Positions 10,339 to 11,553 of a stretch of DNA of 17,257 nt are shown here, one piece after another. Location: NCBI GenBank assembly GCA_002763225.1, contig PFAI01000047.1, positions 26,516-43,772 on the forward strand, in the 5' to 3' direction. The notes beneath the pieces are model-generated. The model did not search any database. It saw only the letters and a list, made by a program, of their open reading frames with translations, and was not told the DNA's origin. Source of the stretch: Candidatus Diapherotrites archaeon CG10_big_fil_rev_8_21_14_0_10_31_34. Its GTDB lineage: Archaea; Iainarchaeota; Iainarchaeia; Iainarchaeales; 1-14-0-10-31-34. Each line of letters opens with the position of its first letter. Position 1 is the first letter of the stretch. Both the position numbers and the translations under genes were made by a program.

Positions 10339-11553
10339 ATGGCAGAAGAAAATAAAAAAGAAGTTAAGAAAACTGAAAAAAAGCTAAAAACTAAAAAAGA
10401 ACCAGAAGAAATAGAATATATTCTGGAAAAAACACCTGATGAAAACACAACAAAACACGAGTTTTTGCCTGTTTCAGTAATGAGAGAAATTGATTCAAGA
10501 GTAAAAAAATACTCTTTAAACCCGGCAGAAAAACAAAAACTGATTTCAATTTCAGATAAAACTTATTTAAAAAACATGGTTGAACCAGGAGAAGCAGTAG
10601 GAATTATTGCTGCACAATCAATTGGAGAACCAGGAACACAATTAACACTTAGAACAAAACATTATGCAGGAGCAGCAGAAGTGTCTGTTGGATCAGGAAT
10701 CCAAAGAGTAGAAGAAATAGTTGACGGAAGAAGCAAATCAAAGTATCCGACAATGACAATATATTTATTAGAAGAATTCAGAAAAACAAAAGAAGCAGTG
10801 GAAAAATATGCAAACATGCTGATTGACATCAGAATAGGAGACATAATTAAAGTAGAAGAAGATTTAAACAAAAAGAAAATTTTTATTACAGTAAACGAAA
10901 AAGAAGTAAAAGATAAAAGCATTGACAGAAAAGATTTAGACAAAAAAATGGAAAAATATTTAAAAATGAAACCAAAAGACAAAAATGGAGTATTAGAATT
11001 CGGCCCATCAAAAGAATCATTATTAAAATCAAGAAAAAATTTAAACAAATTAATTTCAACCAGAATTCAGGGAGTAAGAGGAATAGACAAAACTCTTGTA
11101 GCAGAAGAAAAAGGAGAATTTTTGATTAAAACAAGCGGAACAAATTTAAAAATAGTTTTAAAATTACCTGAAGTAGACAAAGACAGAACAACAACAAACG
11201 ATATAAAAGAAATAAGCAAAGTATTAGGAGTTGAAGCAGGAAGAATAACAATAGTAAATGAACTACATAAAACATTCAGAGACAACGGAATAATGTTAGA
11301 TGTAAGACATGTAATGCTTTTAGCTGATTTAATGTGTTTTGAAGGAGATGTAAAAGGAATTGTAAGAACAGGAATTACAAGACAAAAAAGCTCTCCATTA
11401 GCAAGAGCAGCATTTGAAGAAACAACAAAACATTTATTAGATGCTGCATTCAAAGGAGAAATAGAACAATTAACCGGAGTAGTGGAAAACATTATTGTAG
11501 GACAGCCGATTAATGTTGGAACAGGAAATGTTGACTTAATAATGAGGAAATAA
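10339..11553 (+). CDS. rpoA2: RNA polymerase subunit A'' (Rpo1C)
   Basis: [63 protein letters not shown] 10339 preferred because GTGAT at 10330 is SD-like. Confidence 0.96.

Follow-up and report, generated by a model that had tools for sequence, protein, structure and literature searches.

The RNA polymerase encoded in the window (the whole 17,257-nucleotide stretch of DNA analysed here) carries lysine in place of the phenylalanine that directly precedes the trigger-loop histidine. This Lys is fixed across the order Iainarchaeales. Outside it, the residue has reappeared in other archaea with small genomes, in giant viruses and in bacteria, where it does not come with a bridge-helix Glu, a changed link Arg or a missing hinge Pro. 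We consider it probable, from comparison of sequences, that this is a recurrent alternative state of the active site in which the Lys of the closed loop would point at the triphosphate and add charge where Tyr769 of the Rpo2 link (yeast Rpb2 numbering) is gone. It looks like a second working active-site design and not like a two-residue repair. Full-text literature searches, subscription papers aside, returned nothing that deals with a naturally occurring Lys at this position or with the active centre of Iainarchaeota. Papers are cited below by PMC number, from excerpts of their text or data; the excerpts of an archaeal RNA polymerase evolution paper that names the phylum (PMC13257274) contain neither 'trigger' nor 'bridge helix'.

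The trigger-loop site in the window and in its phylum

The operon in the window runs rpoH, rpoB'', rpoB', rpoA', rpoA'', L30e, nusA, S12, S7 and EF-2 (the last named by its sequence), and the named relatives are Candidatus Iainarchaeum. Rpo1C matches TIGR02389 over positions 2-367 of 367 (E 5.5e-118, 394 bits, under the cut-off of 420.65) and aligns without gaps to the solved archaeal chains 36ro_C, 4qiw_C and 2pmz_C (E 4e-79), which have Phe and Pro at the two sites where the window has Lys and Gln. The preliminary description had pointed out both replacements in the segment 10636-10710 of the forward strand, the Lys (codon AAA) right before the loop His (10660-10662) and the Gln that turns the GxPR hinge into GIQR, and both are confirmed. 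The canonical TFH loop and GxP hinge are absent, with TKH and GIQR instead; they are conserved traits of archaeal RNA polymerase, not family-defining ones.

A single copy of Rpo1C was found in the genome, which is 81% complete. The Lys codon is also spanned by contigs from three other DNA runs (X4, X5 and X6), in which a synonymous T>C at 10662 is the sole loop difference listed. Because these contigs show no listed change in the codon, TKH is not an assembly error. Nor is it chance, since all 43 order genomes read at codon level have Lys, as AAA in 15 and AAG in 28, amid synonymous variation. Given a single copy, intact frames and purifying selection, we infer that the enzyme functions as a polymerase, and it is likely to be the usual, indispensable RNA polymerase of an archaeon in which the side of the trigger loop that faces the NTP is in an alternative state. 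The features are collected in Table 1, for which we take the Rpo2 codons at 6765-6767 and 5537-5539 to be the R1020 and E529 positions of yeast Rpb2 by numbering.

Table 1. Polymerase features of the window (positions count from its first letter)
Feature	Position	Strand	Remark
Asp at yeast Rpb2 E529	5537..5539	+	
Rpo2 link Lys at yeast Rpb2 R766	6114..6116	+	
Rpo2 link His at yeast Rpb2 Y769	6123..6125	+	likeliest neighbour of the loop Lys
Leu at yeast Rpb2 E836	6324..6326	+	Asp837 retained
Lys at yeast Rpb2 R1020	6765..6767	+	variable across the phylum
Rpo1N (A')	7733..10333	+	catalytic NADFDGD intact at 9041-9061; bridge helix 10091-10174
Bridge-helix Glu at M. jannaschii L814 position	10115..10117	+	phylum-wide; appears to predate the Lys
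Rpo1C (A''), trigger-loop carrier	10330..11553	+	1 copy found
Trigger-loop Lys	10657..10659	+	yeast F1084 position; numbering agrees with the yeast haplotype list
Gln at hinge Pro position (yeast P1099)	10702..10704	+	

Elsewhere in the window, a 79-codon hydrophobic ORF (7484-7723) lies between rpoB' and rpoA' and has no NCBIfam match, and EF-2 (13460-17257) has, by reading, a long insert after the first GTPase motif with intein-like ends and LAGLIDADG-like motifs. Natural Rpo1N-Rpo1C fusions occur in genus g20, of 1269 residues in G050 (L122) and 1262 in G053 (L123); G052 has another 1269-residue frame, and G049 of the same genus has split subunits. A single-sequence AlphaFold prediction for a piece of the G053 fusion reached a pLDDT of 43.5.

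The phylum and the class comprise the same 215 genomes. The TKH pattern was found in 179 of the 196 genomes of Iainarchaeales (including G147, matched by pattern only) and in 0 of the 19 genomes of the phylum's other orders; for the 17 misses within the order, Rpo1C was not found in 11 and only a piece lacking the site in 6. It also matched 4 of 186 other archaea, and the three matches listed are out of context. All pattern counts are minimum values, as the first pattern required Leu two residues before Arg and missed a Met-bearing group that was found by locus reading. A short TFH DNA pattern run over the phylum was uninformative, with ~8 chance matches per genome.

Locus reading of 88 order genomes gave Lys with the bridge-helix Glu in 82, Lys with Met in one (G154) and an incomplete reading in five, and the 17 genomes of other orders had Phe, with Glu in 16 and the helix unread in one. 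The hinge Pro is missing in all 103 phylum genomes read, the residue being Gln (79), Lys (4), Glu (2) or Asn (1) within the order and Asp (15), His (1) or Ala (1) outside it. Its loss appears to be older, phylum-wide and unrelated to the Lys. Glu836 is absent from all 48 phylum genomes in which that position could be read, and position 529 is Asp in 41 of 42 order genomes, with Glu kept in G154.

What was the order of these changes? On a FastTree phylogeny of 165 tips (BLAST-mapped columns, motifs masked, seven genomes left out for gaps, weak deep nodes, DPANN-enriched archaeal sampling), G154 (L110) is the first branch within the Lys clade, and it keeps R766, E529 and a near-canonical bridge helix. 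Because G154 branches first, the Glu, the Pro loss and the Glu836 loss would predate the Lys, whereas R766K and E529D would have followed it, an order that rests on this one genome and a rough tree. G154 may be a useful intermediate or a reversal. In genus g75 (L093-L106), BLAST mapping places an apparent two-residue gap before Rpo2 Asp837, possibly an alignment artefact.

Recurrence in other archaea, bacteria and giant viruses

Among the best 150 representatives in a library-wide search, the residue at the site was Phe in 128, Lys in 20 and Tyr in 2. Four of these Lys proteins retain the hinge Pro, and one has a cluster mate that carries a Nanoarchaeota label. Six related small-genome families with Lys were found among the 80 archaeal families sampled. 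In the phylum of genome G397, 11 of 401 genomes (one of them unpublished and counted as a non-match) have the strict TKH pattern, and reading added five further Lys genomes. The 22 Lys archaea from outside Iainarchaeota have R766, R1020 and the hinge Pro in 22 of 22 cases and the bridge-helix Glu in none. Parsimony places nine changes at the site on the 165-tip tree, with 11 separate Lys clades.

Giant-virus contigs hold 18 TKH loci and at least 119 TFH loci. The viral bridge helix, readable in 18 of 19 TKH loci (one extra locus included), has Leu in 17 and Ala in one. Metagenomes yielded at least 119 TKH loci, and 79 of the 80 examined lie in loop context; by reading, 72 of these are bacterial, six Iainarchaeales-type and one viral-type. 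Of ten looked up, three belong to clusters labelled as Patescibacteria groups and one to a cluster labelled Bacillota, and six have no organism label. The bacterial bridge helix has Leu in 38 and Thr in 2 of the 40 loci read, and R766 is present in 38 of 38.

The loop His itself is replaced in three Lys-bearing archaea, by Leu in G234 (L225) and G670 (L522) and by Trp in G668 (L524), and G420 (L510) has Arg there; in yeast, H1085L is viable (PMC5127505). One giant-virus TKH Rpb1 (L183:1738-6030, minus strand) has an intein-like insert within its bridge helix. Another giant-virus bin name covers both a TKH and a TFH locus (L328 and L332), either two paralogues or a mixed bin.

Candidate partners of the lysine

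The preliminary description proposed that the loop Lys forms a compensatory salt bridge with the bridge-helix Glu, replacing a hydrophobic Phe-Leu contact. The two do occur together in 82 of the 83 order genomes with both sites read. Across 168 genomes, however, the states vary independently: 43 have both, 23 have Lys without Glu, 16 have Glu without Lys and 86 have neither, so that an obligate pair was not found. Glu stands with Phe in all 16 other-order genomes, G154 combines Lys with Met, and no Glu accompanies the Lys in 22 of 22 outside archaea, 18 of 18 viral loci and 40 of 40 bacterial loci. Moreover, the L814 position is described as touching the beta-D II loop in PDB 2E2H (PMC2988716), and E. 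coli L783A is silent (PMC3077646); an L814E mutant has been made (PMC2776397). The salt bridge is largely refuted as a requirement, and as the explanation of the Lys it is very improbable, with a secondary Lys-Glu contact within Iainarchaeales being something that may exist.

The same description suggested that the Lys contacts the NTP phosphates in place of a lost link Arg. Contact with the phosphates agrees with the published closed-loop structure (PMC10543002); replacement of a lost Arg does not survive as the cause. The Arg is not lost in the order, only changed to Lys, apparently after the loop Lys arose, and it is kept elsewhere. More broadly, the Lys could have arisen to replace either basic phosphate ligand of Rpo2, R766 or R1020. 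Lys occupies the R766 position in 39 of 41 order genomes and in four of eight viral TKH bins, the R1020 position is Arg in just 22 of 42 order genomes, and yeast R766Q/A and R1020K/Q are lethal (PMC3533926, Table 1). Yet G154, the earliest branch, and G179 combine Lys with R766, the 22 outside Lys archaea keep both residues, the 38 bacterial loci keep R766, and 3 of 13 Phe-bearing genomes from other orders lack R1020 as well. We therefore regard this origin as quite unlikely; if the sites are linked at all, the link would run in reverse, with Lys first and Arg relaxed later. The R1020 position takes Arg, Lys, Asn, His, Thr, Glu and Met within the order (examples besides the window in L052, L057, L059 and L133-L136).

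Position 769 of the link is a different case. In the closed loop, Phe1084 and His1085 interact with the NTP phosphate tail (PMC10543002; PMC11388330), F1084, Y769 and Q1078 lie close together (PMC12391331), and a third ion site adjoins E529 and Y769 (PMC10543002). An exclusion scan against Lys over 2,117 columns of four subunits ranks column 769 first after the loop site itself, with bridge-helix 824 at 1391 and R766 at 1888. Tyr769 together with Lys was found in 0 of 63 archaeal genomes read, 0 of 8 viral Rpb2 and 0 of 38 bacterial loci. At 769, the Rpb2 of viral TKH bins carries Ile or Val in seven of eight cases and Phe in one; the TFH controls from viruses, few in number, show Tyr or Phe in four of five. 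The bacterial TKH loci have Met in 37 of 38, a weak test of 'not Tyr' because most bacteria may have Met769 anyway. Absence of Tyr769 carries modest weight by itself, since Tyr occurs in just 16 of 95 non-Lys tips. In the G397 phylum it occurs in 0 of 58 sampled genomes, most of them Lys-free, and the Lys genome G545 is identical in link, bridge helix and metal motifs to its Phe sisters G468 and G438, the loop site being the only difference among the motifs read. Given bacterial Met769, the Lys-free loss of Tyr in the G397 phylum and the comparison of G545 with its sisters, loss of Tyr769 is at most permissive.

Other candidates were set aside. A wider rule, that 769 is never Tyr, Phe, Met, Arg or Lys alongside the loop Lys, gave a post hoc Fisher p of 1e-4 to 2e-3 and failed out of sample on the bacterial Met and the one viral Phe; only 'not Tyr' survives. 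A search for a co-gained compensator in ten lineage/sister pairs over 2,152 columns gave nothing convincing, the best candidate being link His761 (8 of 10 against 1 of 10, with sisters reused and many tests). TFS (PF01096) was not found in any of the 215 Iainarchaeota genomes, of which 58 reach a completeness of 90% or more, with matches in control archaea; 72 of 80 other archaea gave a match, and seven of the eight misses adjoin the phylum on the tree. It is present in all 22 outside Lys genomes, which rules out its loss as the reason for the Lys, and its absence appears to characterise the phylum irrespective of the Lys. A review gives TFS in all archaea except Methanopyrus kandleri (PMC7289017). 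The closest thing to TFS in G000 is an 84-residue frame (G000:C47:15885-16136) with one TFS-like N-terminal-type zinc ribbon.

Possible role of the lysine and comparison with known polymerases

As the loop closes, the Lys amine would reach the triphosphate, and possibly the cation site between 529 and 769, adding positive charge. The Lys would need room, which may be why it appears only where Tyr769 is already absent: a permissive background rather than a one-to-one partner. In Iainarchaeales it would have followed the bridge-helix Glu, the Pro loss and the Glu836 loss and preceded R766K and E529D, both of which may have arisen afterwards to accommodate the Lys, with the Pro loss as a separate relaxation of the C-terminal hinge. 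Both residues flanking the third ion site, E529 and Y769, are changed in the order, and Glu529 is kept in 21 of the 22 outside Lys genomes. E529D speeds yeast Pol II (PMC10543002), and a Lys-Asp529 contact is a reasonable guess.

Could the Lys be merely tolerated, without gain, in small-genome lineages that put up with a slightly worse loop? All Lys lineages have many active-site changes, the missing TFS hints at relaxed fidelity in the phylum, some Lys enzymes dispense even with the His (Leu in two and Trp in one of 22), and close relatives such as G545 and its sisters differ in state with no other motif change. Such nearly neutral drift predicts many residues at the site, however, and the 171 genomes hold only Phe (91), Lys (66) and Tyr (14), the same three as the best 150 representatives, with two to three base changes needed from Phe to Lys. 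The three-state alphabet, together with invariance in the order under both codons, suggests selection on the Lys, and we consider drift unlikely. A stronger version of the preferred reading, the recurrent alternative state, is possible but doubtful: the Lys may be a repeatedly selected built-in cation that raises NTP affinity or replaces a loose ion between 529 and 769, favoured in host-dependent, nucleotide-scavenging DPANN, Patescibacteria and giant viruses. It fits a comparison among archaea: 17 of the 84 outside genomes whose loop has Phe or Tyr carry Arg or Lys at 769, against 0 of the 63 with Lys in the loop, as if the same charge came from either side. One TKH protein is labelled Bacillota. 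If true, the built-in cation would act in Iainarchaeales in an enzyme also lacking Glu836 and TFS; yeast E836A has a severe fidelity defect (PMC3533926). In the G397 phylum, Arg or Lys769 with loop Phe occurs in 16 of 58 sampled genomes (L508-L528, e.g. G455, G420, G418 and G422).

Yeast genetics bears on the same positions. According to about 48 of the 223 F1084K rows in the source data of PMC12391331, F1084K by itself is ultra-sick or lethal, as are its combinations with T834P, T834A, Y769F or S713P, and the combination with Q1078S is classed GOF; elsewhere F1084K is called LOF (PMC10069792). Because it stays ultra-sick or lethal with Y769F, loss of Tyr769 alone is insufficient. F1084R is specifically suppressed by Rpb2 Y769F and by Q1078S, and with Y769F is classed GOF (PMC12391331); its own class differs between studies, since an older plate screen lists the single mutant as strongly MPA-sensitive, Spt- and GOF-type (PMC5127505). 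P1099Q is LOF (PMC12391331), as are most P1099 variants (PMC5127505). The exact loop of the window is already in a published yeast library and is lethal there: the 16 substitutions of one haplotype match it one for one, with a fitness of -9.18, and five other F1084K haplotypes are all near -9 (PMC12391331). This lethality does not isolate the Lys, because archaeal loops often kill yeast for other reasons (PMC10827151). The excerpts of PMC12391331 do not discuss the natural Lys; its supplement may list it among the nine archaeal substitutions that yeast does not survive. Yeast Pol II cannot tolerate this loop state, which has evolved repeatedly in nature. Trigger-loop catalysis is still debated, including whether the His is a general acid (PMC5127505), and sister genomes differing at one site, together with the His-less variants, provide ready test pairs for the loop's contribution and for the role of background in rendering a lethal change viable.

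The polymerase of the window is a variant of a well-known enzyme and not a new system, and the variant is real, lineage-wide and recurrent. With archaeal RNA polymerases it shares the operon order, full-length colinear subunits, NADFDGD, the loop Gln, Leu, Arg and His and the hinge Gly. Unlike the solved ones, it has the bridge-helix Glu and an Rpo2 changed at 529, 766, 769, 836 and 1020, and TFS was not found in its genome. The RpoC of Patescibacteria and of one Bacillota and the Rpb1 of giant viruses share the Lys directly before the loop His; they mostly keep the bridge-helix Leu and never have Glu, the bacterial enzymes mostly keep the hinge Pro and have Met at link 769, and the viral ones have Ile or Val there. 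In yeast, F1084K, F1084R and P1099Q are ultra-sick, lethal or LOF, whereas here Lys and Gln are the fixed wild type.
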